A stretch of 64,000 nucleotides of DNA from a virus. Where the stretch lies: positions 62,160 through 126,159 of IMG/VR virus record IMGVR_UViG_3300007504_000003; one strand, 5' to 3'. A program made the position numbers and the translations under genes. The notes under the pieces were generated by a model. It worked only from the letters and a program-made list of their open reading frames with translations, did no database searches and was not told the DNA's origin. How positions within the stretch are numbered: position 1 is the stretch's first letter; every line of letters begins with the position of its first letter. Positions 24,964 through 60,834 of the stretch are shown in pieces.

Positions 24964-25788
24964 ATGAGATCTCTGCGTTCTAGCGTCATCCGGCTGGCTG
25001 CTTCCTTGGAAGCAGGAGACCCGCTTCGGGGTCATCTTGTAGAGGCAGCAGCGGGCTTTGAGGAGTTGACGAGATTCAATTTCTCTTCCGTCTTGCAGTC
25101 CTTAGTGGCTCAGATGCTCCGAGAGAACACGGGTACGCTCTATGTAGTGGACGATGACGGCGTCACCTCGGAGCGGGCTTTGAAGGACAAGTTGGACGAG
25201 GCACTCTCAGGTGCCTCGGTTCGGCCTACTTCCGGTATGTGGACCGGCCGGGGGCCTAAGCCCCGGAAGCCGACTCTTCCTCGGGTAGAGGGGTTCAAGG
25301 CTCGCTATGAGCAGCTCTTGGATGCGGAACGTATGGACTGGAGGAACAAGACGGTAGAGGTGCAGGCTATCCGGTCACCCAGGACTCGGAGGCCCGGGTA
25401 CAGGGTCACCTGGGAATTCAAGCGTCCGGCTGCCCAGCCGATGCAGTCTCTTGATTTCCGTCGCCTTGTGACGATCCACTATGGTTCAGGTCGAGAAGCT
25501 TTTCAGCAGGTTCTCCCTGAGATTTTGAGGTACCTGAGCAGTCAGCGGGGCGTACAGGTTGTTCGGGAGTCGGCTCCCGTGGCATTCACTTATGAGGGAG
25601 AGGAGTTCGGGCTTCACTTTTCTGTCAACGCTTACGGGAGCAACAACGTGCTCTCGATCGTTCGTCCCGACCCTCATGAGGTGATTTCTCTTTCCGTGCT
25701 GGGTCACTGGTCGGTGCCCACCCTCGGGGACCTCCCGAGGGTGGTCTGGGAGGAGTTCGTCAAGAACCTCGCGGCTAAGAACCGCTAG
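24964..25788 (+). CDS. LRxxVIRLA-leader protein of unknown function
   Basis: N-terminus MRSLRSSVIRLAASLEAGDPLRGHLV. Confidence 0.65.
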   Translation: MRSLRSSVIRLAASLEAGDPLRGHLVEAAAGFEELTRFNFSSVLQSLVAQMLRENTGTLYVVDDDGVTSERALKDKLDEALSGASVRPTSGMWTGRGPKPRKPTLPRVEGFKARYEQLLDAERMDWRNKTVEVQAIRSPRTRRPGYRVTWEFKRPAAQPMQSLDFRRLVTIHYGSGREAFQQVLPEILRYLSSQRGVQVVRESAPVAFTYEGEEFGLHFSVNAYGSNNVLSIVRPDPHEVISLSVLGHWSVPTLGDLPRVVWEEFVKNLAAKNR

Positions 25789-26390
25789 GCGGCCTCGACC
25801 TGGAAGGTGCCGCCCGCCTGACCCTTGAGCCGGAGCACCTCTCCGTCCTCGGTCTCGAAAGTGTGGGTCTCTTCCCACGTCTTCGGACAGAAGGTGCTGT
25901 CGGTACGTCGCCCGGCCTTCAGACGCTCCCAGAGCGTCGATCGCCCTCGCGGGGGTCCCGGGAGGCTCCGGAACTGAATCGAGGTGCCTGGGAGGCACTG
26001 GACCGTCCGAGGTCGCCGTGCGGGGATCTTCGCCGGGACCTGCTCCGGCTCCGCCTTGACGGGTTCCGGCTTCGGCGGGCTCGGAGCTTCGGGCTTGGGT
26101 GTGGCCTTCTTCGGGCCGAAGTGCTTCCGGCAGAAATCCCGCTGCTGGAGCCCCAGGCGGAGGTAGGTGACGATTACATGGTCGTAGATGTGCTCGCAGA
26201 TGATCCCGAGAAAGTCGTGGGTCAGCCAGTACCGGGTGTTCTGGCTCCGGTTCCCTCGTCGGCCCAGGAGGACCATGACGAGGTCCGGGCTCAGCTCAGT
26301 GGCGACGTGGCGGGCCGCGAGCAGGGCTAGCGGTGTGGCTTCCGGGTGATGTATCTGGAATCGCTGGATCGCGTGTCGTCCGACTCGCAT
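25785..26390 (-). CDS. hypothetical accessory protein
   Basis: RBS AGGAGG and an upstream TCGTATAC promoter motif. Confidence 0.6.
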   Translation of the reverse strand: MRVGRHAIQRFQIHHPEATPLALLAARHVATELSPDLVMVLLGRRGNRSQNTRYWLTHDFLGIICEHIYDHVIVTYLRLGLQQRDFCRKHFGPKKATPKPEAPSPPKPEPVKAEPEQVPAKIPARRPRTVQCLPGTSIQFRSLPGPPRGRSTLWERLKAGRRTDSTFCPKTWEETHTFETEDGEVLRLKGQAGGTFQVEAA

Positions 26391-26408
26391 GGGATACCTC
26401 CTATTTTC

Positions 26409-26436
26409 GTATACGACTGGCCCGGAGATATTTCCC
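26409..26436 (-). promoter_or_regulatory. ECF-like promoter motif
   Basis: GGGAAATAT-N11-TCGTATAC. Confidence 0.55.
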
Positions 26437-26502
26437 TAAAAATGTCCGGGGTTGCGGCCGGTAGATCCCTGATAGGTTCCACCAGTGTAGAGGAGCCCGC
26501 TG

Positions 26503-27390
26503 ATGGGATTCAGCAATCAAGAGCGGATCAACCTGCTTACCAAGGCGCTGGCCGCCGGGGTGTTGGACGCTAATTCGGTTTCTTCCTGGTATGAGACCTT
26601 CTTCCCGTTTCGGTTCATCAACGAGGCGGGGACGGTGTGGATGGAGCTGGGGACGCTCAGGGGCTTCCCAGCCGCGAATCTGTCAGCCGCCCAGACGAAC
26701 GCGGCAGACCCGGCTCTCTCCACAATTTTGGAGGATCGTTCCGCAGCCGCGAACGCGGTTCGTTTAACCGCGGTGACGGGGACCAACGGTAGCACTTGGG
26801 TTGCTCACAGCACCTACAACGACGCCTCTTCAGCCGTCCTGACCAACTGGCTCCTCCCGCAGCTTGTTCCGCAGTCTTCTGGGGTGCCTTCCAACGGGTA
26901 CGCGATTCGCTTGTATGAGGGCGACCCGGCGAGCGGCGGCACGGAGATCTCTACGACCTCAGGGACGACCGGGACGGGTGACGAGAAGACTGTCGGCTGG
27001 GTCTGGAACTACGCGAACGGGATGCTGCTGCTCTCTGACGACTTCAAGGGGAGCGTCTCGGACCCTTACGTGGTCGGGTTCCGGTATGTCGGACGAACGG
27101 CTCAGGATACGGAGGATGACCTCCAGACTCTTGAGGCGAGCGTAGCGACGACCCAAGGAGAAGTCAGCACTCTCCAGTCGGAAATGGCGACGGCTCAGTC
27201 AAATATCACGACTCTTCAGTCAGAGATGACCGCTGCGGAGGCGGATATCGACTCCCTGGAGTCTGATATGACGACAGCGCAATCAGATATTACGACGCTT
27301 CAAAGCGACGTAACAACGCTTCGGGACGACGTGGATGCCCTTCAGCAATCGGCTAATGGGATGGTGGTTCGTTTCGTAAAGGGCGGGTGA
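26503..27390 (+). CDS. virion fibre-like protein with C-terminal coiled coil
   Basis: 14-aa periodic repeats (TTLQSEMATAQSNI type) at about 27120-27345. Confidence 0.65.
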   Translation: MGFSNQERINLLTKALAAGVLDANSVSSWYETFFPFRFINEAGTVWMELGTLRGFPAANLSAAQTNAADPALSTILEDRSAAANAVRLTAVTGTNGSTWVAHSTYNDASSAVLTNWLLPQLVPQSSGVPSNGYAIRLYEGDPASGGTEISTTSGTTGTGDEKTVGWVWNYANGMLLLSDDFKGSVSDPYVVGFRYVGRTAQDTEDDLQTLEASVATTQGEVSTLQSEMATAQSNITTLQSEMTAAEADIDSLESDMTTAQSDITTLQSDVTTLRDDVDALQQSANGMVVRFVKGG

Positions 27391-27393
27391 TCT

Positions 27394-29412
27394 ATGCCGC
27401 TTGGACAAGCTGGAGATCCCTTCACCTTCCACGTCCTCTGGTTGGACGCGGAAGGGAGCCCGATGACGGTGACCTCTCCTGCGATCGATATCTTCTACTT
27501 CGATAACGCTGGGGATAGGCAGAATCTTGTCACCAGCGGGGTGATGACTGCCGTGACCGGGGACACGGGGCGGTATGCCTACGTCTACACCGTCAGCTCT
27601 TCCTACGACGAGCCCTCACCTGTCTACGGGTTGATGACGGCGACGGAGACGGCGACGGGGTTGGAGCTGGTGGAAGAGATGGTGGTCGATGTGATCGACC
27701 CCAACGCGAGCACCCTGACGGTGAAGAACGAAGGGGTGGTGCTCAACACCAGCGTGACTAGCATCGATTTCATCGGGGTCGATGTGGAGTCCGACAACCC
27801 TTCTGGAGACGCGATCCGGGTCTTTATCCCGCCTCCCAGCTATCAGTCTCACTGGAATACTTCGGACGGGGACAACGGGAACCAGTCGGTCACGGAGTCG
27901 ATCTCCAGAACGACGACTCGGATCCCCGACCCCAGCGGGGGTGAGGGCTCCCCATTCAAGACAGGCGGGTGGGCTGACTCCAATCAGGACACCACGCTGA
28001 GCACCTCAGCGACCTTCACGACTCCGGATGTGACCACGGGGTTCGGTGGGGACTCCACCATGACAGTGAATGTCTACGACGCAGACGGCTCTACTGTCTT
28101 GGAGACCTTCACTACGGCAGCCCTGGACGGGGATGGCTCGTATGACGCCCCTAGCGGGAACATCAGCGTCACCTTGTCCAGCTACGGGTCGGATACTCTT
28201 CAGTGGAAGGCGAAGGCGTCTGTCGTCGTGGACTTCGACGGGGTTTTGTCTGACGCTGGCCTCACGGGGGGACGCTGCCACGCTGAAGTGATTCACACCA
28301 CGGACAGCGGAACCGACGGTACCGGTCCCTACACGTATACTCAAGACCCGTTCTTTCTGGACAGCAACCCCAGCACCCCAGCGATTAACGGCACCGTTTC
28401 GGTGTCCGAGACCGCTGGGCAGGTGTTAACCAAGCATCTCTCTGGGGTGGAATACTACATCCTCAGCTCGCAGTTCACAGCGTCGGTGACGGATATCGAC
28501 GGCTTGAACGCCAACAGCATCAGAACGAGCGCGAACCTCGTCCTGACCGGGTCGGAGTACGGTCTCTCTTCCCTCTCCCACAGCCCCTTCGGGACAGGTA
28601 GTGCGAATTTCTCGGGTTGGTCATCTGCGGAGAACCAGGATGACGTGTCCTACAGCAACACTGCCTGGGCGATCACCCAGGGGAGCTATCGCTATTTCGG
28701 CTCGACCGCGAATATCTCCAGCTATCCCCGGGACCCTTGGGCTAACGGCTCTACTCAGAACTCGTCCAATGCCTCGATTCTGATCGACACCTACACGTCC
28801 AGCTCAAGTGCCCTGGTCGAGAACTTTGACGACGAAGATCTCCGCCAGGACAGCGGGTTCAACAGCGGGGCCGCAGCGGGCAACTGGACCAGTACGACAG
28901 CTCTGGTTTCCGGGGAGGGCTTTGTCCACAACGGGAAGCTCATGTCTCCGGAGGCAGCCTCCTACCAGGACTGGTCCAGCTTTCAGCCTTCAGCCGGCGG
29001 CGCCAACCCAGACTACTCCGCCTTGTCGGTTCCCGTGAGCTATTACCGGACTTTTGAGGACACGTCAGGGGATTCTCGCTCCAGCTTTTCGGTGGTGTTC
29101 AGCGGGGCCTTTGTGTCCGACGCGACGACGGATCTCGCCAATAGCGACCTGGAGATCTTTGTCAGGCGGGTGTCTTCGCCGCTTGGCGATTCCGGCCCGA
29201 GTGCGAATCCGCTCAACCTCCACGGGTCGCTGTACAACTTTTCCTCATTCGACGACGGGGTCACCAACGGTGATATCCGAGAGGGGTCGTCGTCTGGGAA
29301 CACCGTGAATGGCACCTTCGGGGGGCTCCCTTGTGAAGATGGGATCCATGTCCACGTCCGCATCAACGACGCGACGATTCAGATCGACAGCATGACGGTG
29401 ACCTTCTTCTGA
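27394..29412 (+). CDS. Ser/Thr/Gly-rich virion structural protein
   Basis: beta-rich composition; N-terminal domain paralogous to 30163-30480 (VTSPxIDIFYFD). Confidence 0.65.
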   Translation: MPLGQAGDPFTFHVLWLDAEGSPMTVTSPAIDIFYFDNAGDRQNLVTSGVMTAVTGDTGRYAYVYTVSSSYDEPSPVYGLMTATETATGLELVEEMVVDVIDPNASTLTVKNEGVVLNTSVTSIDFIGVDVESDNPSGDAIRVFIPPPSYQSHWNTSDGDNGNQSVTESISRTTTRIPDPSGGEGSPFKTGGWADSNQDTTLSTSATFTTPDVTTGFGGDSTMTVNVYDADGSTVLETFTTAALDGDGSYDAPSGNISVTLSSYGSDTLQWKAKASVVVDFDGVLSDAGLTGGRCHAEVIHTTDSGTDGTGPYTYTQDPFFLDSNPSTPAINGTVSVSETAGQVLTKHLSGVEYYILSSQFTASVTDIDGLNANSIRTSANLVLTGSEYGLSSLSHSPFGTGSANFSGWSSAENQDDVSYSNTAWAITQGSYRYFGSTANISSYPRDPWANGSTQNSSNASILIDTYTSSSSALVENFDDEDLRQDSGFNSGAAAGNWTSTTALVSGEGFVHNGKLMSPEAASYQDWSSFQPSAGGANPDYSALSVPVSYYRTFEDTSGDSRSSFSVVFSGAFVSDATTDLANSDLEIFVRRVSSPLGDSGPSANPLNLHGSLYNFSSFDDGVTNGDIREGSSSGNTVNGTFGGLPCEDGIHVHVRINDATIQIDSMTVTFF

Positions 29413-29450
29413 AGTCGCCGGGGTATTCGGCCTATACATCCGGGAGGGCA

Positions 29451-29756
29451 ATGAGTCGTTTTTCTGACCCGTTTCGCCTCAGGGTGCTGGAAGACCAGAT
29501 CCGAATCTCTGTCCGGGTGACGGAGAGGAAGGTGGACGAGTACACGTTCTCCATTTCTGAAATCCGGGGGATCACTCTGTCGTTCCCGCCCGGCCCGGAG
29601 TGGGTGGAGGCCGGGTCCCTGAAGGTTCGTATCCGCGACGGGAAGGCGATGATCGGGTTCCAGGTCTCCGCTTACAAGTGGGAGATTTATTCGATGGTCC
29701 CCGGCAATCTCGTTCGTTTCCTAGCCCAGCTCCGGGCAGCGTTGGGGGAGGGCTGA
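29451..29756 (+). CDS. hypothetical protein
   Basis: ORF with RBS and late-type promoter motif. Confidence 0.55.
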   Translation: MSRFSDPFRLRVLEDQIRISVRVTERKVDEYTFSISEIRGITLSFPPGPEWVEAGSLKVRIRDGKAMIGFQVSAYKWEIYSMVPGNLVRFLAQLRAALGEG

Positions 29757-30163
29757 TGCCTATCGGAAGATCGCCTCGGATTCGGGCCGCCCAGATCAGG
29801 TCTTACCTGACCATCGAGGCTTATGGCGTGACTCAGGGGGAGGTTGTCTCCGTGGTAGACGATGGAGGCACGATGAAGCTGCTTCCTTGCTCGTCAAATC
29901 TCTATGCGGACACCTTCTATGGATTCGCGGACGCGACGACGGCTCAAGGGACCATCCCTACCATCACGGGCAGGGGGTCTCGGGTAACCCCGCTCGTTAA
30001 AAACGACGACCCTCTGGTGATCGGTGTCGGCGTGTGGCTGAGCGACACCGCGGGTCGGGTGGTACAGACACCCCCCTCGTCGGGCACGATTCTCCGGGTG
30101 GGGACCGCGGTGACTACGACTGAGATGGTCCTGGCGACAGATGCCAAGGTGAGCATCGGTTGA
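29756..30163 (+). CDS. putative capsid cement/DUF2190-like protein
   Basis: GVWLSDTAGRVVQTPPSSGTILRVG resembles the C-terminal domain of the 44245-48708 fibre; TGATG coupling. Confidence 0.5.
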   Translation: MPIGRSPRIRAAQIRSYLTIEAYGVTQGEVVSVVDDGGTMKLLPCSSNLYADTFYGFADATTAQGTIPTITGRGSRVTPLVKNDDPLVIGVGVWLSDTAGRVVQTPPSSGTILRVGTAVTTTEMVLATDAKVSIG

Positions 30164-30480
30164 TGGCATACACCACCCTGGGTGAGGCGGTGACCTTCAC
30201 CGCGGTCTTTGTGGACGGGGTCAATGACCCGCTCACGGTGACCTCTCCACTGATCGATATCTTCTACTTCGACAGCGGAGGCGACAAGCAAGCCCTGGTG
30301 ACTGAGCAAGCCATGACGAGCCTGGGATCAGGGCACTACGTGTATTTCTACACCCCGGTGGGGCTCTCCACAGGCGTGGTTCTCGTGGGGTTCATGCGGG
30401 GAACTTCTGATGGGGTCCAGGTTTCTACGGAGCAGAGTTTCTCTATCCGGTCAAGCGTCCCCCTTAAACTCTCCAGGTAG
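30163..30480 (+). CDS. Ig-like virion protein, paralog of the N-terminus of 27394-29412
   Basis: TVTSPLIDIFYFDSGGDKQ vs TVTSPAIDIFYFDNAGDRQ. Confidence 0.65.
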   Translation: MAYTTLGEAVTFTAVFVDGVNDPLTVTSPLIDIFYFDSGGDKQALVTEQAMTSLGSGHYVYFYTPVGLSTGVVLVGFMRGTSDGVQVSTEQSFSIRSSVPLKLSR

Positions 30481-30495
30481 ATCGTATACAAGACC

Positions 30496-30867
30496 ATGCT
30501 CTCTCTTTCCGAAATTGATCGCCGGCTGGTCCGGGCTCACCAGACGAGCCGAGTCGTCGTTTCCCTGGGTGAAACCATCCGGGAGATGATTTCGGAGGAT
30601 CCCGAGGTGACTCTGCTCCGGGTTGAGAAGAGGCTCCGGGAGCTTGGTAGCTCAGTACATCTCCTCGCGGCTCCCCTGGAGCAGATGCGGCCTGGGCTTG
30701 AGGCCCGGAACGTTGATGGTTCCCTGGCTTCCTATTGGCTCTGGATATGCCTCTATCCTCGGGAGCTGGAATCAACCCGGGAGCGATTCGGAATCCAGAG
30801 CCCGCAGGAAAATCTCCTCCGGCTCCGGGAGACTGGTTTCCTCATGCTTCAGGATTCTCATGGTTGA
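30496..30867 (+). CDS. hypothetical protein
   Basis: 123-aa ORF with TCGTATAC just upstream. Confidence 0.55.
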   Translation: MLSLSEIDRRLVRAHQTSRVVVSLGETIREMISEDPEVTLLRVEKRLRELGSSVHLLAAPLEQMRPGLEARNVDGSLASYWLWICLYPRELESTRERFGIQSPQENLLRLRETGFLMLQDSHG

Positions 30868-31270: not shown

Positions 31271-31646
31271 TTACGAAATCAGCGGTGGGCTCATGTCTCC
31301 AGACGGGATGGGCTCCCTGTTTCTGGATGGCTATGCGATTCCCGAGCCCGTAGATCCCAGGATCGTGGGGGCCCATGTCGGATCGAGTGTGCCCGGCTCC
31401 TGCTGCATTCGGGGTGAGAAGGAAGGGCTCCCCGTGGAGTGGGTGGTGGAGTTCGACTGGCTCTTCGCCTCGTTTACCCCGGACAAGGTGAACCACCATG
31501 TCGCAGTTATCTGCGGAACCTTCCCGGTGCATGTGGAGGCTGTCCACGAGCCGGTCACCGTGACCCTGAGGTGGAAGGACGCAGAGGGGCTCCATGAGGA
31601 GGAGCGTCGCTTGGATTCCGGAGTCGCGGAATTCCGCTCCCGATAG
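31263..31646 (+). CDS. hypothetical protein
   Basis: 127-aa ORF in operon context. Confidence 0.5.
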   Translation: MSDYEISGGLMSPDGMGSLFLDGYAIPEPVDPRIVGAHVGSSVPGSCCIRGEKEGLPVEWVVEFDWLFASFTPDKVNHHVAVICGTFPVHVEAVHEPVTVTLRWKDAEGLHEEERRLDSGVAEFRSR

Positions 31647-31688
31647 ATTCTCTATAGGGCTTCGTGGTTGAAGCCTTGGAGAATCCGC

Positions 31689-32342
31689 ATGAGTGGCCTG
31701 CGTCGAGCTATCATCCGTTTGGCCGCTTCTACGGCGGAGGCTGACCTCAAGAGCGACTTGCTCCGGTTGGTCGCAGCTCCCGCAAAGGGAGGGCTGTACC
31801 TCCGTCCCCAGAACCCGCGTGTTACCGAGAGGTGGAGTGCCCTTCTGGGTCGAATCCTGTACGATAAGTATGGGTCTGGGGTTGTGAATATCCCAGATGT
31901 GTCCCTAGTGGACACGGATCACGGGGAAGAAGTCTTCGTGGACATGTACGGGGTCGGGATTTCGGTCAAGAGCCACACCACTGTCCTGGCTTTGCTCGGG
32001 GTTAGCTTCTACGATGAGAAGTCTGGGATCGAGGCGGTCAAGACACTCCAGAAGGATCCGCGTCACCCCCCGCTAGGCTTGTTTCGCGCAACCAAGTATC
32101 GCAGCACCCGCGTCTATCCTCCGATGAAGGAGGTCCCCCAGGGGGGTTCGTCCTACAGAATTCGGGGGGACAAAGTGCAGGTTTCTATAAATCCTGACCG
32201 GATTTACGTCAGCGGATCGACGTACCCGATCAAGGATGACCTCCGGAGTATGGGGTTTCGCTGGGATCGAGACCGCAAGGCGTGGTGGCTGGATGCCCGC
32301 CGGTATGACCGAGGCGTTGAGCAGCGCCTCAAGGCAATGTAG
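31689..32342 (+). CDS. LRxxIIRLA-leader protein of unknown function
   Basis: MSGLRRAIIRLAASTAEADLKSDLL; C-terminal TYPIKDDLRSMGFRWD...WW motif. Confidence 0.65.
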   Translation: MSGLRRAIIRLAASTAEADLKSDLLRLVAAPAKGGLYLRPQNPRVTERWSALLGRILYDKYGSGVVNIPDVSLVDTDHGEEVFVDMYGVGISVKSHTTVLALLGVSFYDEKSGIEAVKTLQKDPRHPPLGLFRATKYRSTRVYPPMKEVPQGGSSYRIRGDKVQVSINPDRIYVSGSTYPIKDDLRSMGFRWDRDRKAWWLDARRYDRGVEQRLKAM

Positions 32343-32351: not shown

Positions 32352-33041
32352 ATGCCCGGTGGAGCAGTCAAGACTCCCGCAGATGAGAAGCGGTGGAGCC
32401 GAGCCAAGGAGATCTTCAAGGAGCAGAAGGGCCGAGACCCGGAGGGGGATGACTATGCCCTGGTCATGCACATCTTCCAGGGGATGAAGCGGACCAAGCA
32501 TGTCCCCGGTCAGAAGAAGAAGGCTCTCACGGATCTTCGTCGGGCGGTGATCCGGCTCGCGGCTTCTGAGCCGCAGGAGAGCCCCCTCCGGAAAGCTCTC
32601 CTCGCCTCCATGTATGGTCCTGCTCCGACAGAGCGAGTCTCCCGGCCGAAGGAGGTGAGGAATCCTCGGCCCCTTCGGTACCACAGGTCCAATCGTGATT
32701 TTGTGGAGATCAAGAAGGCGGTGGAGGGTTCCATCGTTTTCTACCAGGAGGAAGACCCGCGGTTCTCCAGCAGCCGACCTGACCCGGAGTTTGACTATCT
32801 CATGGTTCTGGCTCACTACCAGAACCCACGACACGGGGTTCACTACGTGTGGGAGATGTTCGACCTGGATTCGGACAGCGGGGAGCCTATCTGGGAGGAA
32901 GAGGAGGAGGAAGATCCTCGTCGGTGGTGGAGTGTCCAACAGGCGTGGAAGCACGCTACGGATTCCGCTATCGACACCAGGAACGACCCAGGCGACCCAC
33001 CGGACTCCTATTTCGAGCAGGGGTCTTACTACAGCTTCTAG
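32352..33041 (+). CDS. ChaB-like N-terminal domain plus internal LRRAVIRLA tag
   Basis: DEKRWSRAKEIF...DYALVMHIFQGMK then KKKALTDLRRAVIRLAASEPQESPLRKALL. Confidence 0.55.
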   Translation: MPGGAVKTPADEKRWSRAKEIFKEQKGRDPEGDDYALVMHIFQGMKRTKHVPGQKKKALTDLRRAVIRLAASEPQESPLRKALLASMYGPAPTERVSRPKEVRNPRPLRYHRSNRDFVEIKKAVEGSIVFYQEEDPRFSSSRPDPEFDYLMVLAHYQNPRHGVHYVWEMFDLDSDSGEPIWEEEEEEDPRRWWSVQQAWKHATDSAIDTRNDPGDPPDSYFEQGSYYSF

Positions 33042-33054: not shown

Positions 33055-33498
33055 ATGGCGAAGGAAACTCTCCGTAGGAGAGCGATTCGGGTCGTGAAGG
33101 CTCAGCCGGTGGGGTCACCCTTGCGGCGACACTTGCTCGCAGCCCTGAAGCAGAGCTACGAGCCCTACCGGGAGTATGAGGATCATTATGAGGATGTGGA
33201 GCAACCATTCCCGAGCCGGCTAGCCCCCACTCGGGTGTCTCCGACCTCCTATCATCGTCGTCAGCGGGAGTTTCAATCCGTCGCTCGGGCGTGGAAGGGT
33301 TCCATCAGCTACGGGAGAAAGCGGGACGACTACTTCCTTTTTCTGGTGGTCTATGAGGACGGGGTCTTCTGGGAAGCCTTTCAAGATGGCGTCTGGGATG
33401 GGCCCGTGTTCGATGACAGCTACGACAACGACAGGCCGGAGTCGGTCTGGAGGCGGGTGGTGACGTCGGTGCTGGAAGACGACGGCTACGACTTCTGA
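33055..33498 (+). CDS. LRRRAIR-leader protein of unknown function
   Basis: MAKETLRRRAIRVVKAQPVGSPLRRHLL. Confidence 0.6.
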   Translation: MAKETLRRRAIRVVKAQPVGSPLRRHLLAALKQSYEPYREYEDHYEDVEQPFPSRLAPTRVSPTSYHRRQREFQSVARAWKGSISYGRKRDDYFLFLVVYEDGVFWEAFQDGVWDGPVFDDSYDNDRPESVWRRVVTSVLEDDGYDF

Positions 33499-34205
33499 AC
33501 GTGCAACAAGAGATCACGGGCTGAGCCATAGGGCTTGTCGAATCCCAGGAGCGCGTTCCCATCCCTGTCCGCCTTTTTCACCCATTCCAGCATCTCGGGA
33601 TCAAAGACCCCGATAGGGTCGGAGAAACAGGAGCCTGGGCGGTGCTGAGCGGCGTTCTGGGGCGGGTAAATGTCAGGGCTTACCCTGACCCCTAAGAGGG
33701 CTTCAAGAGCCTTGTAGAGGCGGCTGGAGTCCAGCAAGAGGTCAATCTGGAGGGGAGACCCGAAGGCCCATTCGGTCGTCCAGGTGAACAGCCCGGCTCT
33801 TCGATTGAGGAGACTCGGTCGGAAGTCCGGGTCCCCCTTGGCGAAGTTGTTGACGACCTGGAAGTCTCTCTCCAGGTCGGTGACCTCATTGGGGTGTGTG
33901 ACCCCATAGAGGAAAGGCTTGAACCCGGGCTCTCCATTGCCCCAGCTCCGGAGTCGTTCCCGCCCCTCGGCTCCGGAGCTGGCGTGCTGGTAGAGGCTCG
34001 CGTACCAACTCCAGGCGTCTCGGTGGGTCCCGAAAACTTGTCTACCTTCACGCAGAGAGTGGTCAAGTTTTTGGATGCTCTCGTGTCGTCGGATGCCTGA
34101 TATTCTCTCGGCTCCCAGGCCACGAGCGAGAACCCGGCTGACGGACATGCCTCCGGTCTTGGGCATGTGCCAGTAGAGGAAGCTCTCGGTTCGGAGTATC
34201 GCCAT
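33486..34205 (-). CDS. sulfotransferase-family-like protein
   Basis: FLYWHMPKTGGMS (5'-PSB loop) and RDAWSWYASLY (3'-PB-like). Confidence 0.65.
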   Translation of the reverse strand: MAILRTESFLYWHMPKTGGMSVSRVLARGLGAERISGIRRHESIQKLDHSLREGRQVFGTHRDAWSWYASLYQHASSGAEGRERLRSWGNGEPGFKPFLYGVTHPNEVTDLERDFQVVNNFAKGDPDFRPSLLNRRAGLFTWTTEWAFGSPLQIDLLLDSSRLYKALEALLGVRVSPDIYPPQNAAQHRPGSCFSDPIGVFDPEMLEWVKKADRDGNALLGFDKPYGSARDLLLHVQKS

Positions 34206-34991
34206 CTACTTCATCCCCTCGATCAATCGAGGGAGGAAGGTCTCGGAGGCTTCACGGAAGTGAATGGCGTACTCCTCCAGAAACTCAGGGAGGGGGCCGG
34301 GGTCAATCACGAAGGTGGGGAGGGGTGCGATGGTCGCGGAGAAGACCGCTTGCTCGGTGATTCCGACCGCGAAGGAAGTCCCGATGAAGATACAGCAGGT
34401 CATTTGATCCAGCGCGCTCAAGGCTTCTGAGAACCGGTAGCTCTCGTGACTTTGGTAGTTCTCGTCAAACCACAGGACGTGGGGGCGAAGGAACTTCCGG
34501 CACTTGGGGCACCGAGGGAGGGTCTCCCGACAGGGATTCGCCCGGAAGGCGGAGAAGAGGCTCTCATCCCATTCGACGAGGCCCCTGGGCTCTCCGTTGA
34601 CGCAGTGTCGGTTGGTGCAGCGGAGATATCGGGCTGCCCCGTGGACCTCCATCACGGAGGTAGATCCCGCCGCCGTGTGGAGTCCGTCTACGTTCTGGGT
34701 GATGATCTGGAGCTGCGGGATCATTTGCTCCAGGTCCGCCAGGGCTGTATGGCCGGCGTTGGGTGAGGCCGAGCGGCAACCGTCGAAACGGCGGAGGTAC
34801 CAGGACCACTGCTTGACGGGCTGGCGGAGGAAAAACCTCCAGGTGCCCATCTCCAGTACGGTCTCTGACCAGACCGCATCCGGGTCTTGACCGCGAAAAG
34901 TGGGGATCCCGCTGGCTAGGCTGATGCCGGCTCCCGTGACTACAACAGGTCGGGCGTCAGGTCTCTGGAGCTGCTGGATGAGATCTCGCAT
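34206..34991 (-). CDS. Sir2-family NAD-dependent protein deacylase (CobB-like)
   Basis: TGAGISLASGIPTFRG, TQNVDGLH, EVHG, zinc-binding Cys pairs, LRPHVLWFDE, IGTSFAV. Confidence 0.93.
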   Translation of the reverse strand: MRDLIQQLQRPDARPVVVTGAGISLASGIPTFRGQDPDAVWSETVLEMGTWRFFLRQPVKQWSWYLRRFDGCRSASPNAGHTALADLEQMIPQLQIITQNVDGLHTAAGSTSVMEVHGAARYLRCTNRHCVNGEPRGLVEWDESLFSAFRANPCRETLPRCPKCRKFLRPHVLWFDENYQSHESYRFSEALSALDQMTCCIFIGTSFAVGITEQAVFSATIAPLPTFVIDPGPLPEFLEEYAIHFREASETFLPRLIEGMK

Positions 34992-35056
34992 GGGGGATGA
35001 TACCGTTTTCGTGGTCAGTAATGGCTTAATAGGTCCGAGTGGCTGAGGAACAGCCT

Positions 35057-35467
35057 ATGACTCCCCTGCGTCGTCGAGCGATTCGTCTAGCTTCCAGGCT
35101 CCCCGCTGGGGCTCCTTTGAAGGTGGCTCTCCTGAAAGCCGTCGAGGCGTCGTCAGATCCCTATGGACAGGAGATCCTCCGTCAGCTCGGGGGATCTCGC
35201 TGGCTTCAGATGATGATCGGAGCCAAGAATTTTATGGTCGGGCACACCAACGGTGGGGCTCTTGGGGGTCTCAGTTTCAAGTTCCCCCGGCCGGGTCGAG
35301 GCAAGCCGAATTTCGTTCGGATTCTCCTTATGGGAGACGACACCTACAGCGTGGAGTTCATGTCTCTCCACGGGTACAACGCCCGCTCTATGAGCAAGGT
35401 AGATGGGATCTACGCAGACCAGCTCCGGGGTCTCTTTGAGAGGAACACGGGCCTTTATCTGAGGTGA
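35057..35467 (+). CDS. LRRRAIRLA-leader fused to a conserved small phage/plasmid domain
   Basis: leader MTPLRRRAIRLASRLPAGAPLKVALL; payload EILRQLGG...GAKNF...DTYSVEF...GIYADQL...TGLY. Confidence 0.65.
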   Translation: MTPLRRRAIRLASRLPAGAPLKVALLKAVEASSDPYGQEILRQLGGSRWLQMMIGAKNFMVGHTNGGALGGLSFKFPRPGRGKPNFVRILLMGDDTYSVEFMSLHGYNARSMSKVDGIYADQLRGLFERNTGLYLR

Positions 35468-43506: not shown

Positions 43507-44061
43507 ATGGCTCGCAGAACCGATATCGCCTTCATTGAAGAGCAGATCGCCGCTGGGCGTTCCACTATTCAGAGCATCAACCAGAAGTATCAGGCGTACC
43601 ACGAAGAGGTGGGGGCCAAGGTGCGAGAGGTGCTGGAGGAGGCTGGGGTTTTCGAGGAGGTCAAGGCTCTGGAGACCGAGCGTGAGGAGACCCGTCAGAA
43701 GGCCCAGGCGAAGATCAACAGGATCAACGGTCAGCTCCAGCAGCTCGCGGCGACCCAGAACTTCCTCCTTCAGCGGGAGGCTGACGCTCCCGAGGTTTCC
43801 TCGGAGGAAACTTCCTCCGAGGAGGCTCTTGAGGAGACCCCGGCAGAGGCTCCCATTCCTGAGGGGATGGATGACGCCTCGGAAGAGGTTGAGATGCTCC
43901 CTGTCCCTGCCGTTGAGGACGAGGGTGAGGCTCAGGACGGGACGGATGACGAGACCCCGGCTCCAGGGACGGTCATCACTGAGATGGAGCTGATCCAGGC
44001 TCAGGTTTCTGAGGCCCGGAAGAAGAAGAAGGGTTCTTCCCCGAAGCCCCCTCAGTTCTAA
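43507..44061 (+). CDS. coiled-coil protein with acidic tail
   Basis: heptad-rich N-terminus; ATG 43507. Confidence 0.6.
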   Translation: MARRTDIAFIEEQIAAGRSTIQSINQKYQAYHEEVGAKVREVLEEAGVFEEVKALETEREETRQKAQAKINRINGQLQQLAATQNFLLQREADAPEVSSEETSSEEALEETPAEAPIPEGMDDASEEVEMLPVPAVEDEGEAQDGTDDETPAPGTVITEMELIQAQVSEARKKKKGSSPKPPQF

Positions 44062-44071
44062 AAATCTTCGC

Positions 44072-44083
44072 TAGGACCTCTAT
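44072..44083 (+). promoter_or_regulatory. putative late promoter of the fibre gene
   Basis: TAG-gacct-CTAT. Confidence 0.55.
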
Positions 44084-44244
44084 AAGGGGATCCCTATAGC
44101 GACAGCCCATCCTCCGTGATTGTCGATTGGAAGGAGGAGCGAGGACCAGCTTTCCGCTGGGCGGCCTATCCCCTCGCCTGATTGGAAGGCCCCGATGAGG
44201 GGTCCGCCCAGAACCTTCCGCACGACTTCGCGGAGAAGATAAAC

Positions 44245-53780: not shown

Positions 53781-53782
53781 CC

Positions 53783-55249: not shown

Positions 55250-55277
55250 GGTCCCTGCGTAGCAGGAGGTCGTACCC

Positions 55278-56171
55278 GTGTCTGTTGTCTTTTCTCCTGG
55301 TCAGACGCTCGGGCGTGGCGACCTGGACATGTTCCTGAGCAACGCCAATGGCAACGCGGCGAATGCTTATTCGATCACCTACGCCATCTATTATGTGGAC
55401 CCGGACACTTCCGCGGAAGTGCTGATCGGGTCCGCGACTCGGACACCGGTAAACCCCGCCGTCGGGGAGTATTACGCCTCTCTCCAGGTCCCGACGACTT
55501 CGCTGGCTGGGGATTACCGCATTCGGTGGACCTTCGCGGAATTCTCCTCCTCGCCTAGCCAGCAGGTCGTTCAGGAATGGGCTGTAGTCGCCAGCTCCCA
55601 GCTCTCGTCAGCTACCTATACGACGAGTGAGCAGATGATGATCGATAAGCTCAGGATCCTTCTAAGGGACGGGAATCCGGACAGAAATTATAAATTCCGG
55701 CCCCCAGAGCATGAGGGGGATATCAACGCCTACAACCAAGTTTTCGGGTTCGTCTGGGAAGACTCCGAGCTGTACGAGTACCTGGGGATGGCTCTGGACA
55801 TGTGGAACCTGTCCCCGCCGGAGACCGAGAATCTCTGCTCGCTGGACAAGCTGGTTTCCCAGAAGGCGGTTTGGAAGACCCCGGTGATCTGGGGCGCCGT
55901 CTACCACGCCCTGCTCGCTCTCGCGATAAATTGGGTCCACGACGAGTTCGACTACTCCATCGGCGGGGTCTCCCTCTCCATCGAGAAGTCGTCGAAGTAC
56001 GAGTCCCTGAAGCAGAACGCTGAACAGCAGTTTGAGAAAGCCACCGAGGCCAAGCAGCGGACGACCAAGTTTCTGAGGGGCATCCGCCAACCCAGGTTTG
56101 GTGCAGGAGCCCGTTCGGCTTTCGGCCCCTACGTGGGTCGGAACGTTATGAGCCCGAGGAAATTCCTTTGA
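55278..56171 (+). CDS. putative head-tail adaptor/neck protein with N-terminal Ig-like domain
   Basis: IDKLRILLRD, WEDSELYEYL, EFDYSIGGVSLSIEKSSKY. Confidence 0.55.
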   Translation: MSVVFSPGQTLGRGDLDMFLSNANGNAANAYSITYAIYYVDPDTSAEVLIGSATRTPVNPAVGEYYASLQVPTTSLAGDYRIRWTFAEFSSSPSQQVVQEWAVVASSQLSSATYTTSEQMMIDKLRILLRDGNPDRNYKFRPPEHEGDINAYNQVFGFVWEDSELYEYLGMALDMWNLSPPETENLCSLDKLVSQKAVWKTPVIWGAVYHALLALAINWVHDEFDYSIGGVSLSIEKSSKYESLKQNAEQQFEKATEAKQRTTKFLRGIRQPRFGAGARSAFGPYVGRNVMSPRKFL

Positions 56172-56183
56172 GGTTTTTCGGTC

Positions 56184-56212
56184 TTGACGTGGGGAGTAGC
56201 GTACTGTAAAGT
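56184..56212 (+). promoter_or_regulatory. sigma70-type promoter
   Basis: TTGACG-N17-TAAAGT, 5 nt before the ATG (near-leaderless). Confidence 0.7.
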
Positions 56213-56217
56213 GGGGT

Positions 56218-57654
56218 ATGGTTAAGTGTCCTCATTGTTCGCGGGAATTCAAGGGCTCCAAACTCAACGCCCGCCACCTGTCGATCTGCAACCCGAGTGC
56301 GAGACCGCGGGTAGAGCCCTGTCTTTGTGGTCATGAGGCGACTTCCCTGACCCAGATGAAGAGGCATCGTCGGGGGTGTGAGATCTGGCGTTCTCGGGAC
56401 AAGAAGGCCCTCGCGTCAGCTCGCCGTAAGGCTACAAACCTGAAGCGATATGGGGTAGAGGATGCCTCTCAGACTGCGGAGGCACGGGCTCGGAGGGCTG
56501 CGACGAATAAGGTCCGCTACGGGGCTGAGAACGTCTTCTGCCGGGAGTCCGGGGTCTTCGACAAGGTGCAGGCCAGTCTGGAGGGAAAGCGGTTCAGACC
56601 GGACGTGAGCCCCTTTGCTGACCCTGAGGTCCAGGCGAAGAGCCGATTGACTGTCCGAGAGCGGTACGGGGTCGAGAACGTCCAGCAGGTGCCGGAGATC
56701 CGGGCTCGTACCGAGGCCACGATGCGGGAGAGGTATGGGGGTTCGTTGATGGCTTCTGCTAAGCTGGCTGCGAAGGCCCGAGCGACGAATGAGGCTCGGT
56801 ATGGGGATGCCTGTCCCCAGCGGACGGACGAGGTGAAGGAGCGTCAGCGGCAGACGAACCTGGAGCGGTGGGGAGTGGAGTGGACGGGTCAGCACCCGGA
56901 GGTTCGTGCTCGCCAGCTAGCGACTCACCACGAGCGATATGGATCCCACTGGTTCGCGTCTGACGAGGGGAAGGAGGTTGTCCGGGCTGCGATGCTGGAG
57001 AGGTACGGGGTGGATCATCCGGCGAAGATGGAGGGCTTCTGGGAGAAGGTGGTTATGACTTTCCGGGAACGCTATGGGGTAGACCACCCTCTTCAGGACC
57101 CCGAGTTTCAGGCCAAACAGCGGGCTACGAACATTGAGCGGCATGGGTGGGATTACTACATCAACTCCGTTGAGTTTGTTCGATCTTGTTTTATTGGGGC
57201 TGGGGTTCCCTTGCCGGAGGTTCTCCCATACCACCCGATGAAGAATAGGGAGTACGCCCGTAAGCACCTGGAGAGAATGGGGGCAGGTATACCGGGACCC
57301 AACGGGCTTGAATCCAAGGTACTCAACTTGGCTCCGCCAGGGTCTCTGACGTTCACGGGCGACAGAAAGTGGTGGCGGTGGCTCCCTCTCCTGGGGCGGC
57401 ACAAGAACCCGGATTTCATCGTTCCGGGCCCGGATCCTGATCATCCCTTCCGTGGGGTCACGAAGGCTATTGAGGCGTTCGGTGATTTCTGGCATTCCCG
57501 CATGTTCACCGGCAAGGCTCCCTTTGCCCATGAGAGCGAGCTGGTAGCGGCCTATGCCGAGATTGGGATTGCGTGTTTGGTGGTGTGGGAGTCTGAGGTC
57601 AAGACAGACCCGGAGGGGGTGCGGTCTCGGTTGTCTGAGTTTCTCAGCGGCTAA
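56218..57654 (+). CDS. homing-endonuclease-like protein: zinc finger, RYGV repeats, PD-(D/E)xK/Vsr-like nuclease
   Basis: CPHC..H..C; about 10 [NR]xERYGV repeats; KNPDFIV...IEAFGDFWH...LVVWESE. Confidence 0.7.
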   Translation: MVKCPHCSREFKGSKLNARHLSICNPSARPRVEPCLCGHEATSLTQMKRHRRGCEIWRSRDKKALASARRKATNLKRYGVEDASQTAEARARRAATNKVRYGAENVFCRESGVFDKVQASLEGKRFRPDVSPFADPEVQAKSRLTVRERYGVENVQQVPEIRARTEATMRERYGGSLMASAKLAAKARATNEARYGDACPQRTDEVKERQRQTNLERWGVEWTGQHPEVRARQLATHHERYGSHWFASDEGKEVVRAAMLERYGVDHPAKMEGFWEKVVMTFRERYGVDHPLQDPEFQAKQRATNIERHGWDYYINSVEFVRSCFIGAGVPLPEVLPYHPMKNREYARKHLERMGAGIPGPNGLESKVLNLAPPGSLTFTGDRKWWRWLPLLGRHKNPDFIVPGPDPDHPFRGVTKAIEAFGDFWHSRMFTGKAPFAHESELVAAYAEIGIACLVVWESEVKTDPEGVRSRLSEFLSG

Positions 57655-58051
57655 CTAGCCGGTGCCGGCGGAGGTGTCCGCCGATACCTCGGTACATGTT
57701 GTCTTTGGAGATATCTCCTCCGACCATGTCGATGTGGTAGTTCTTTGAGAGCCTCTTCTGGCCCTTTTTGTCGAAGATTTCAACGAGGAGGGGCTCTAGA
57801 AAGTCCGTCTCGGTGAAACGGACTTCTGCTCCACTGTCGAAGTAGATGGTAGCTACGTTCCCGCGGACGCTCCAATCGTCGATATATCGACGATATTTGC
57901 GGGCGAATTCTTTCGCGTAGACTTCTAGCCCGTATCGGGACGCCTTCACGACTCCCGCGAGGATCGCTCTCCTCGTCTCATCCCCGATGGGGAGGGAGTC
58001 CGCGAGATGGATTAGGGCACGTCGGTCGCTTGCAGTCAGGAGTCGGGGCAT
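57644..58051 (-). CDS. leader-tagged protein of unknown function
   Basis: MPRLLTASDRRALIHLADSLPIGDETRRAILAGVVKAS. Confidence 0.6.
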   Translation of the reverse strand: MPRLLTASDRRALIHLADSLPIGDETRRAILAGVVKASRYGLEVYAKEFARKYRRYIDDWSVRGNVATIYFDSGAEVRFTETDFLEPLLVEIFDKKGQKRLSKNYHIDMVGGDISKDNMYRGIGGHLRRHRLVSR

Positions 58052-58110
58052 TCTGGGCCTCACTACAAACTGTCCCCATAAATGTTTTACCGGTGGAGGT
58101 CCGCCCCAAG

Positions 58111-58344
58111 TCAGGGTAGGTGCGTTACGGAACCCGTAGGCTCGATCAACCACACTTCATCCTCGCCGTGCTGGAGATCGAAGGTCTCGCCGTACATTTG
58201 AATCGAAAGTCTCTCCGGGTTCTCTCCTGAGGAGAGAAGGAATCGGTAGAGGGTGTCGATCGCCTCTGGGGGTGTCGGCTTCCGGGAGAAGATGGCGGCG
58301 ATGATGAGACCCGTCTCGGGACAGATTCGGTAGAGAAGGTACAA
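58111..58344 (-). CDS. small hypothetical protein
   Basis: TTG start after GGAG with TCGTATA motif upstream. Confidence 0.5.
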   Translation of the reverse strand: MYLLYRICPETGLIIAAIFSRKPTPPEAIDTLYRFLLSSGENPERLSIQMYGETFDLQHGEDEVWLIEPTGSVTHLP

Positions 58345-58370
58345 GAAAGGCTCCGGTAGGGTTCCCCTGG

Positions 58371-58398
58371 ATATACGAACGAGCCGGGAGAATTTGCG
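58371..58398 (-). promoter_or_regulatory. ECF-like promoter motif
   Basis: CGCAAATTC-N11-TCGTATAT. Confidence 0.55.
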
Positions 58399-58686
58399 GT
58401 GCCGAATAACGAGGTCACTCCCGCGGACGCGGTCGCCTACTTGAACGAGCTGGTGCGACTTGATCGCCCTGCGATGCACGCTCTTGTAGAGAGCCGTGTA
58501 CCCTGTCAGGAGGCTTTAGCGGACCACCCCACGGTCCAGGTAGTCTCGGACGGTGAAGACGCCGTGGTGGGCTTCCTGGGGGTCCTGAACGGGTTGTTTG
58601 GAACTGACGCGGAGGGGTGGGGTGCTATCGCTGCTGTGTTTGATGAGCAGGGAGATCTGCTCCGGTTCAAGGAGCGGGGGTCTTGA
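58399..58686 (+). CDS. conserved phage hypothetical protein
   Basis: LADHPTVQV...VGFLGVLNGLFG. Confidence 0.6.
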   Translation: MPNNEVTPADAVAYLNELVRLDRPAMHALVESRVPCQEALADHPTVQVVSDGEDAVVGFLGVLNGLFGTDAEGWGAIAAVFDEQGDLLRFKERGS

Positions 58687-59152
58687 GGTCTCCGTCCGGG
58701 TGAGTCTCATTCCACCACTCTGCTGACCACTCGCGTGCCCGGGAAATCGGGGGGTCTCCCTCCGGAGCCCGTCCGGTTTTTCCGAGGACTCTGTCCATTG
58801 CTGCCTCGGCCTGGATCACCTGGGAGAGGGTGTGGGAGAAGCTATAGGAGTAGGGGAGGTTCCACCAGTATCTCGGGAAGATGGTGCCCCGGTAGACTTC
58901 CAGCAGCCGGAGTCGGTTTTGGAAGATTCGGGGGACGATAGTCCCCCGGTCATACCGATGACCGGTTTTCTCCGCCATCAGATCGCTGAGCCCCCGAGCG
59001 AGAATGGCGTGTGTGTTGGCGTGCTCGGCCCATCGCACCGTGTGGGCCAGTCGCTCCTCTTCCTCTCCCGACCCGGGGTCATAGAAGACGAGGTAGGTGC
59101 GGCTGAACTTGGAGCGGCTCTTGCGATTTTCTACTTGACCGACACAGATCAT
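58667..59152 (-). CDS. hypothetical protein
   Basis: start MICVGQ inferred. Confidence 0.45.
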   Translation of the reverse strand: MICVGQVENRKSRSKFSRTYLVFYDPGSGEEEERLAHTVRWAEHANTHAILARGLSDLMAEKTGHRYDRGTIVPRIFQNRLRLLEVYRGTIFPRYWWNLPYSYSFSHTLSQVIQAEAAMDRVLGKTGRAPEGDPPISRAREWSAEWWNETHPDGDLKTPAP

Positions 59153-59193
59153 CCCGGTTTCGGTCTGGGCTCCGGTCAGGTCCGGCCAGTGGA

Positions 59194-59571
59194 TCACAGC
59201 AACCCTCCGCACTGGCAGCAGTAGATGGTTTGACGCCAGCGTCGTTGGAAGGCTCCCCCACCGCAGCCACAGCCGACGATCCGGGGGAACCCGTAATCGT
59301 CGCTGTCCTTTGGCTTTGCGAGTCCCTCGCGGATTTCTCGGGCGGCCTGCTCGGCTTCGTTGCGAGATCTGAAACGAGCCCCACCCTGGAAGAAGCCGGA
59401 GGGATCCTTCACCTTCCAGGGTGACCCCTTCGCTCGGTCGTACCGTCTCCCTTCGGGGGCCTCTTCGATGGGGGAGTAGGACACATCCGGGTCCTCGCTT
59501 TGACGGAAGTGTCGGCCGCAGGACCACCGGATCCAAGGGGGGAGGTTCATGTTGTCGGGATAGTCAGGCAT
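59194..59571 (-). CDS. hypothetical protein with Cys cluster
   Basis: promoter motif directly upstream; GCGCGG...CCQCG. Confidence 0.5.
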   Translation of the reverse strand: MPDYPDNMNLPPWIRWSCGRHFRQSEDPDVSYSPIEEAPEGRRYDRAKGSPWKVKDPSGFFQGGARFRSRNEAEQAAREIREGLAKPKDSDDYGFPRIVGCGCGGGAFQRRWRQTIYCCQCGGLL

Positions 59572-59577
59572 ATCCCG

Positions 59578-59605
59578 GTATACGAATGAGTCCTGGGAAT
59601 TTACC
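59578..59605 (-). promoter_or_regulatory. ECF-like promoter motif
   Basis: GGTAAATTC-N11-TCGTATAC. Confidence 0.65.
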
Positions 59606-59656
59606 GTTCCCAGCTCGACAGGGTGGCTCTCCTGCCTCCAACCGGGCCTGAATACC

Positions 59657-60037
59657 TCAGCCCAGCAGGGCCTTGAAGGGGTTGTGGGTGAGGGGGCTGG
59701 CGTCGGTGGCCTCCGCCAAGCGGCGGGCCTCCTCCTTCGCCTCCCGCTCCTGAGCCGCGTAGAGAGCCGCGATCTCGTCGCGGATCTCGCTCGCCGTCAG
59801 AGCGGCAAACCGCTCGGAGGTCCAGCGGGGGCGGATCCCCCTCATCTCCTTGTAGGTGTCGGAGTAGGCCGACACCGCCAGGGCGTGATCGAGCTGGTCC
59901 GCGGTCTCGATTCCCTGATCGGACCAGAACTTCTGGTCCTCCACGAGGAGCCCGGCGCCGCGGTTGCCAGGGTCCTCCGCGATCCAGGCCCGGGTTTTGG
60001 CGTTGCGGGCGCGGGCGAAGTCAGAAGCGGTCTGCAT
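59657..60037 (-). CDS. conserved phage protein (SDxYKExxGIRPR motif)
   Basis: YSDTYKEMRGIRPR; RBS and promoter motif upstream. Confidence 0.65.
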   Translation of the reverse strand: MQTASDFARARNAKTRAWIAEDPGNRGAGLLVEDQKFWSDQGIETADQLDHALAVSAYSDTYKEMRGIRPRWTSERFAALTASEIRDEIAALYAAQEREAKEEARRLAEATDASPLTHNPFKALLG

Positions 60038-60075
60038 GGGAGGTTCTCCAGGTCTCTGCTTGTTCCTTCGTATAG

Positions 60076-60103
60076 GTATACGACCACCCCTGAAAAAGTT
60101 ACC
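60076..60103 (-). promoter_or_regulatory. ECF-like promoter motif
   Basis: GGTAACTTT-N11-TCGTATAC. Confidence 0.65.
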
Positions 60104-60147
60104 TCGATAGATTGGTTATTTTCAGGGAGGGTAATTTGGGAGTATCC

Positions 60148-60834
60148 ATGTCTACTCTTCGCTCCGCGGTCATCCATCTTGCTCGGGACAATGAGGAGTT
60201 GCGGCCTCATCTCCTCCGGCTGGCTCAGAGGGGCGTTTATGTGGCTCTCCGAGATCTCCCGCCTGTCCTGAAGGGCCCGCTCAAGAGTCTCATGCGGTAT
60301 CGCCGTCAGGAGATTGAGGTCATCCCTTCCGCGACTTTCCGCACGTCAGGCCCGGCGTTTGAGGGGAACCGAAACGTGATGGTTCTCGTCAATCTCCAGA
60401 CCGGGGCGACGGAGTTTCTCCGCGGTGCTTATGGGGGAGCGAATCCTTACGAGCAGACGAAGCTGGTGGACCAGCAGACGGGGGGCATTCCCATCCCTCC
60501 GAATGGGGCTGTGCTCTCTGGGGAGACGGGTGGCCGGGGCAGCTTCGCTCGGATTTACATCCACCCGAGCAATATGGCTCAGATGATCCCGGAGGATTCC
60601 GGGGACTCACTCTCTGACGGAGCAAAGTCCGCTCTCAAGGCGTTTGGGCTGAAGGGTGGGGCTTACCGGCGGGATTACTTCCTGCGGTCGGGCCTTGGTC
60701 GCTACGACGCTGAGAACCAGTACATCCGGGAGCTGGCTGATGCGGGATTGGTCAAGGTCAATCGTAGCGGCGGGATTCGGATCACGACGAAGGGCCGGAA
60801 CGTGAAGAAGAGCCTTCCGGGCTCTTACTACTGA
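60148..60834 (+). CDS. LRSAVIHLA-leader protein of unknown function
   Basis: MSTLRSAVIHLARDNEELRPHLL. Confidence 0.65.
   Translation: MSTLRSAVIHLARDNEELRPHLLRLAQRGVYVALRDLPPVLKGPLKSLMRYRRQEIEVIPSATFRTSGPAFEGNRNVMVLVNLQTGATEFLRGAYGGANPYEQTKLVDQQTGGIPIPPNGAVLSGETGGRGSFARIYIHPSNMAQMIPEDSGDSLSDGAKSALKAFGLKGGAYRRDYFLRSGLGRYDAENQYIRELADAGLVKVNRSGGIRITTKGRNVKKSLPGSYY

Follow-up and report, generated by a model that had tools for sequence, protein, structure and literature searches.

The scaffolding protein of phage P22 carries at its C-terminus a helix-turn-helix domain (PDB 2GP8), a small basic hairpin that docks the scaffold to the capsid interior; this coat-binding domain is not grafted onto unrelated proteins. 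Polymorphic toxins use N-domains of the MuF / SPP1 gp7 type, which are folded, exceed 100 residues and are believed to bind the portal. In phage T4, the internal proteins IPI-III and Alt have a capsid targeting sequence (CTS; PMC9026906, citing Mullaney & Black 1996). The CTS has about 10 residues, is strictly N-terminal and is cut off by the prohead protease at a defined (L/I)-x-E site. Giant phages of the phiKZ/SPN3US type package many proteins, the N-terminal segments of which are cut by the prohead protease and are suspected of a targeting role; these propeptides mostly have 111-254 residues, are protein-specific without a single common motif, and are cleaved at a motif ending in Glu (PMC10052503, PMC5694885). 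Polyvalent proteins of jumbo phages are injected with the phage DNA (PMC7824862). The element studied here, tag 2, is a 23-28-residue peptide of the form LRxxxIRLA...LRxxLL. It is found on several proteins encoded by a stretch of 64,000 nucleotides of viral DNA (IMG/VR record IMGVR_UViG_3300007504_000003, positions 62,160 to 126,159), hereafter the window. The same phage has another tag, tag 1 (RVAxRWL).

Like the T4 CTS, tag 2 is a short portable peptide common to unrelated proteins of one phage. Unlike it, tag 2 is predicted to form a helix-turn-helix, is longer, occurs also at C-termini, internally and in several copies per protein, and has no likeness to the CTS in sequence; a short and strictly N-terminal peptide was thus not what we found. 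As in the P22 scaffold, a head-module protein ends, in 12 relatives, with a predicted two-helix hairpin, whereas the seven window copies are N-terminal or internal, and a profile search of the PDB revealed no sequence or profile homology with the P22 domain. The giant-phage propeptides share with tag 2 an N-terminal placement and a possible targeting role, but Glu is found inconsistently after tag 2. Finally, as with MuF/gp7 domains and polyvalent proteins, a common module would take variable effector domains to the head, and the region between portal and protease here encodes multidomain proteins. Unlike MuF/gp7 domains, tag 2 is a predicted 25-residue hairpin borne mostly by small single-domain ORFans.

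Tag 2 is a portable module carried by unrelated proteins

The original prediction had listed seven copies of the peptide in the window, and all seven were present (Table 1; genes are named after their start positions). With leave-one-out profiles built from six copies, the omitted copy was recovered in every case, with E values of 1.8e-9 to 6e-5 among 2,395 six-frame open reading frames (ORFs) of the contig, while the best unrelated ORF gave an E value of 1.1 or worse. Two further copies are located upstream of the window, so that the contig carries nine. One of the two belongs to a 72-residue ORF comprising little beyond an RVAS remnant of tag 1 and a C-terminal tag 2; this ORF might serve as an adaptor or represent a carrier in decay. 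Nucleotide identity within the first helix does not exceed 67% between copies and the codons differ. Therefore, conservation is at the protein level.

The regions downstream of the tags had been described as unrelated to each other. This holds for the payloads generally, but the 32352 payload is weakly paralogous to that of 33055 (E 0.001). For the N-terminal 58 residues of the 32352 protein, no other copy was detected among the sequences examined. Pfam and PHROGs searches with the seven proteins returned a single payload match, that of 35057, beside a weak C-terminal match in 31689. The family matched by 35057, phrog_9437, consists mostly of bare proteins of 97-103 residues, and none of the members retrieved from other DNA carries tag 2. 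The idea that this payload exists elsewhere as a stand-alone protein was therefore correct. As a side observation, the only form of the 35057 gene in a public protein collection is a 116-residue product (window 35117-35467) that starts within the tag (LKVALL...), showing that automatic gene calls can hide the leader.

The 60148 payload family was the most informative on the exchange of N-terminal modules. Tag 2 precedes the payload in the window protein and in homologues P0167, P0169, P0170 and P0171. Homologue P0168 carries tag 1 (RVARLWL) in place of tag 2. In P0172, the payload follows the N-domain of p169, a 169-residue protein of the head gene module (45% identity, E 9e-15). P0173 has a short stub, and P0174-P0177 have no N-terminal module. 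An x-R-G, G-G or A-G junction is conserved ahead of the payload, whichever N-terminal module is attached. A tagged orthologue of the 60148 payload is also encoded 6 kb downstream of the capsid gene in LR745208.1, a 485-kb uncultured phage. Since the 35057 and 60148 payload families both exist without tag 2, the proposal of a leader grafted onto independent payloads is well founded, and tag 2 is a real portable module. Recognisable payloads are few (GNAT, pentapeptide repeats, RelA/SpoT) and none of them is structural. Most payloads have no recognisable enzymatic domain.

Distribution and conservation of tag 2

The window is the right half of one virus contig of 126,159 bp, which represents an estimated 28% of the genome. 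Its major capsid protein is 76% identical to that of LR745208.1, 44% to that of Tunturiibacter phage Tunturi_5, 40% to that of Bacillus phage G, and 58-79% to those of 52 IMG/VR contigs of up to 437 kb. These relationships identify the contig as a fragment of a phage-G-like huge phage.

A search profile made of 23 tags was run against 1.84 billion proteins, hits being counted as representative clusters. It returned 2,695 clusters at E<=1e-3, 136 of which had E<=1e-10. The global consensus reads LRxxLIRLAHxNPELRxxLLPLL, with a weak K-[KE]-A-[AG] after it; about 10 of the 23 core residues are conserved hydrophobics, and three positions are conserved as basic (R 0.80, R/K 0.91, R 0.96). With respect to this consensus the window copies are a diverged variant, and the loop is three residues longer in five of the nine copies of the contig. 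Exact IRLAHxNPELR was found in 25 stretches, spread over 20 IMG/VR contigs that are 28-485 kb long.

Tag 2 had been regarded as a leader. It is indeed N-terminal in about 85% of the copies of three multi-copy genomes, but it is also found at C-termini, internally, and up to five times per protein: the 330 instances in the top hits comprised 119 N-terminal, 64 C-terminal and 147 internal tags, and the top 150 database hits mostly carry 2-5 tags spaced by charged low-complexity linkers. In IMGVR_UViG_3300028377_000008, which has at least eight copies, one protein is tagged at both ends. LR745208.1, which was absent from profile building, has 11 copies, ten of them at the N-terminus of ORFs of 93-351 residues with no mutual similarity between payloads. 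The copies of LR745208.1 have 80% amino-acid identity, yet the same codon is used at only 44% of the identical residues. This indicates purifying selection on the peptide.

The tag was also expected to be restricted to one phage group. Five of the IMG/VR contigs with exact IRLAHxNPELR were tested and, in agreement with this expectation, each encodes a capsid protein sharing 69-80% identity with that of the present contig. Thus, in every record tested, tag 2 is confined to one clade of huge phages. Identity with a known DNA-binding domain had been named as an alternative and found no support: tag 2 matched no curated helix-turn-helix family (Pfam, PDB), no recurrent Pfam family and no natural PDB structure. 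Pfam searches with the 23 tags alone gave nothing recurrent; a single weak match to DUF6865 was not reproduced and was discarded. When all PDB chains were searched with the profile at E<=10, the only matches were chance ones and helical bundles designed de novo. No match was obtained by tblastn of a four-tag protein against GenBank phages, no usable match in the ESM Atlas, and no paper in the literature library searched for the motif strings of the tag.

Predicted structure of the tag

AlphaFold models are consistent with the predicted helical hairpin, with two short helices in the 60148 leader and one helix-turn-helix per tag in a two-tag protein. The 60148 model, computed from a 12-sequence alignment, has a mean predicted local distance difference test score (pLDDT) of 82. 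Its leader helices, residues 4-14 and 19-26, have a pLDDT of 50-60, whereas the payload, from residue 30, is above 90. In this model the leader makes no contact with the payload, from which it follows that the tag is an appendage outside the payload fold. The two-tag protein, a natural protein of 63 residues modelled from its single sequence, was predicted to form four helices with a mean pLDDT of 85 and a predicted template modelling score (pTM) of 0.63. This model is weak evidence compatible with tags packing on each other. Foldseek searches with the two-tag and 60148 models gave no match at E<=0.001.

Tag 2 and the head gene module

In 12 relatives, tag 2 forms the last 30 residues of a protein of 940-1370 residues, the gene of which lies upstream of those for a 171-residue protein, the protease, the scaffold and the capsid protein. 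The protein at the corresponding position in Tunturi_5 is annotated 'DNA ejection protein'; tag 2 itself was not found there. In other relatives the big head-module protein ends in two DEPYM motifs instead of tag 2. We compared the two types on the upstream part, about 2-5.6 kb, of each locus: the protein ends in tag 2 or in double DEPYM, never in both (L005, L006, L008, L018, L023 and L048 versus L009-L038). The two endings look like alternative C-terminal anchoring modules. A motif of the DEPYM type is common to p169 (DESYMKG) and to the multi-tag proteins P0016 and P0019 (DEPYMKG). We also considered tag 2 and DEPYM as a ligand-receptor pair, an idea we rejected since tag 2 is absent from G001, a complete genome of the DEPYM type.

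Other copies lie close to the capsid gene. In LR745208.1, a tagged protein of 134 residues is encoded between the scaffold-like gene and the decoration and capsid genes. In the complete 437-kb genome G024, 11 of the 15 copies are within 15 kb of the capsid gene and on the same strand, and both genes directly 3' of the capsid gene begin with tag 2. In this region of G024 (215500-232500, minus strand; locus L115), genes starting with tag 2 alternate with genes having tag-1-like starts (VAQKYL, VACMYL) directly downstream of the capsid gene.

Proposed function and alternative explanations

We tentatively favour, at somewhat less than an even chance, the view that tag 2 is a docking label that loads accessory proteins into the assembling head. 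Tag 2 would dock unrelated accessory proteins onto a common component of this head, candidates being the scaffold or core, the inner surface of the capsid, or other tag-bearing core proteins. The docked proteins would end up inside the prohead and be delivered along with the DNA, and the head protease might remove the tag. The original prediction of a capsid-targeting leader thus stands as far as the hairpin, the portability and the absence of a known domain are concerned, but the capsid as destination is suggested only by gene position and by analogy. We only infer the head destination, the binding partner, the cleavage and the ejection of the tagged proteins.

Several observations weigh against head loading. 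No copy of tag 2 was found in phage G, in Tunturi_5 or in the complete 437-kb relative G001; as close relatives lack it, tag 2 does not belong to the core machinery of head assembly. The head module is distant from many tagged genes, nine of the 11 in LR745208.1 among them, and 58051 is on the opposite strand. C-terminal, internal and multi-copy tags depart from the T4 signal. The cleavage site is putative: the original prediction had leaders ending near KQS, EAS or KAS, and such residues indeed follow three of the tags, but across the database conservation just behind the second helix is weak (K 0.39, A 0.32, K/E about 0.2 each). Many copies, including most leaders of LR745208.1, continue with L-K-E-A, and Glu occupies that place in only three of the nine contig copies. 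PDB and Pfam searches of the protease-like ORF of the head module matched only its two inteins, with no protease type found. The 'late' class of the promoter-like motif described below is an assumption, and all ten sampled clusters are metagenomic, with no cultured member.

Tags may instead bind one another, proteins with 2-5 tags and charged linkers being multivalent hubs and single-tag proteins their clients. The resulting assembly or condensate need not be in the capsid: a factory in the cytoplasm or a complex with a regulatory role is conceivable; inside the prohead, it would merge with the head-loading view. The prevalence of multi-tag proteins with low-complexity charged linkers among the top 150 hits speaks for such contacts, as do the higher scores of the two-tag model compared to the single 60148 tag, and the number of conserved hydrophobics, which exceeds what one hairpin buries alone. 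However, the two-tag model derives from a single sequence of idealised helices, an input that readily yields bundles. Moreover, no multi-tag protein was found on this contig, and several relatives have one tag per genome and hence no pairing partner. We regard tag-tag binding as possible but on the unlikely side.

Another explanation is that tag 2 docks its carriers to a partner outside the virion. This might be a host target, the transcription machinery, a chaperone, or a protease adaptor through which degradation is timed. Degrons and docking peptides typically stand at either end of a protein, and the three basic positions, the distance of many tagged genes from structural genes and the non-structural nature of the recognisable payloads are also in line with this idea. 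It leaves unexplained the C-terminal tag on the large head-module protein of the 12 relatives, the exchange with the p169 N-domain and the clustering beside the capsid gene in G024, and we consider it unlikely. A removable propeptide, serving mainly to hold payloads inactive or unfolded until cut by the head protease and not to address them, would account for the K-[KE]-A-[AG] that often follows the second helix and for the conserved junction ahead of the 60148-family payload. We judge it improbable, as C-terminal tags stop 0-3 residues after LLPLL without any junction, the modelled leader does not touch its payload, and enzymatic domains are rarely recognised among the payloads.

Least probable, and disfavoured here, is a tag without targeting role, either a structural repeat unit (a HEAT- or LRV-like hairpin) or the by-product of a mobile promoter-plus-leader cassette: tag 2 does resemble one helical-repeat unit, one tag-bearing protein also has LRV repeats and four window copies follow the same promoter-like motif, but the 23 tags have no LRV or other Pfam match at E<=5, most carriers have one copy, multiple copies are set apart by long charged linkers, unlike the tandem arrays through which LRV/HEAT-like repeats (PF01816, PF25591) form a solenoid, the peptide persists although its synonymous sites have been randomised, and the C-terminal copies rule out the cassette for themselves because such a position cannot arise from it.

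Returning to head loading, a broader form can be envisaged in which tag 2, tag 1, the p169 N-domain and DEPYM are an interchangeable address code, with multi-tag hubs and single-tag clients co-assembling into an inner body in the prohead. Tag-tag and tag-core contacts would build this proteinaceous body, by means of which half-megabase phages would load and inject several dozen accessory proteins. This extension is speculative and we give it a rather low probability.

Genetic context of the tagged genes

In the window, the head module has the order 1345-residue multidomain protein, p169, 171-residue protein, protease-like ORF, acidic scaffold-like protein, 220-residue protein and capsid protein. 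The 171-residue protein is conserved in all relatives, and the 220-residue protein occupies the position of the capsid-decoration gene of phage G. A homologue search with p169 recovered only p169 itself. At the prohead-protease position, the ORF at 12729-16790 (plus strand) has a weak match to phrog_18299 and is split by two Hint/LAGLIDADG inteins; LR745208.1 has an intein-free gene for 286 residues at this position. The 1345-residue protein (7498-11535, plus strand) contains a eukaryotic-type topoisomerase IB core (PF01028, E 3.7e-24), an HExxH segment and several copies of RVAxRYL (tag 1), and its middle part matches the N-terminus of the big post-portal protein of relatives. Directly 3' of the capsid gene, an ORF at 20023-21924 (plus strand) has PHROGs matches to HNH/LAGLIDADG homing endonucleases and a DNA methyltransferase and is probably a mobile insertion. 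Two genes on the minus strand (33486-34991) separate the tag-2 genes 33055 and 35057, which are on the opposite strand; one of the pair is SIR2-like according to its GAGIS..GIPTFRG motif.

A late promoter motif had been reported directly upstream of five leader genes. The motif, TA-N6-YTAT, was found before four of them and a variant before the fifth, but calling it late is an assumption. Among the 32 copies genome-wide, 15 sit 8-60 nt before a gene start as compared to about 0.9 expected, so that TA-N6-YTAT is promoter-like. It precedes tag-2 genes and also the tagged genes for enzymes in the interval from portal to protease. We abandoned a narrower version of the promoter pattern, which was circular, having been derived from the five leaders, and gave no gain over chance.

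Table 1. Tag 2 copies, promoter-like motifs and head-module markers. Positions are those of the window unless a locus (L003) or the contig is named.
Feature	Position	Strand	Remarks
92-residue ORF, N-terminal tag 2	L003:6981-7259		upstream of the window
72-residue ORF, C-terminal tag 2	L003:7897-8115 (contig 43897-44115)		upstream of the window; tag directly after the RVAS remnant of tag 1
p169, 169-residue head-module protein	11695-12204	+	two genes upstream of the intein-split protease-like ORF
Major capsid protein	18928-19857	+	phrog_2522; context marker
TA-N6-YTAT motif	24925-24936	+	28 nt before the 24964 start
274-residue ORF, N-terminal tag 2	24964-25788	+	core 24973-25041; payload without family match
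TA-N6-YTAT motif	31644-31655	+	upstream of 31689
217-residue ORF, N-terminal tag 2	31689-32342	+	core 31698-31763; weak C-terminal DUF5710 / phrog_15863 match
229-residue ORF, internal tag 2	32352-33041	+	core 32535-32603, residues 62-84; payload weak paralogue of 33055
147-residue ORF, N-terminal tag 2	33055-33498	+	core 33070-33138, then LKQS
TA-N6-YTAT variant	35019-35030	+	upstream of 35057
136-residue ORF, N-terminal tag 2	35057-35467	+	core 35066-35134; fused to phrog_9437-type payload
135-residue ORF, tag 2 near N-terminus	57644-58051	-	core 57959-58027, then VKAS
TA-N6-YTAT motif	58078-58089	-	upstream of 58051
TA-N6-YTAT motif	60108-60119	+	upstream of 60148
228-residue ORF, N-terminal tag 2	60148-60834	+	core 60157-60216; payload is a beta-rich domain with a C-terminal winged-helix-like part

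Implications

If tag 2 is a label for head loading, a clade of phages of about 0.45 Mb would have an injected arsenal of dozens of proteins that can be read from sequence. Scaling up the nine copies on 28% of the genome gives an extrapolated figure of about 30 tagged genes in all; a complete relative has 15. Thousands of unannotated ORFs would be marked as probable effectors of the first minute, the recruitment of non-structural cargo by huge capsids would become testable, and large capsids could be loaded with foreign proteins through a compact peptide. Should the address code also be true, the cargo system would be far larger and more modular than T4 capsid targeting. If the partner is not the head, tag 2, with its 2,695 clusters and lack of a Pfam family, would still rank among the most widespread docking peptides of phage proteins that have gone undescribed.

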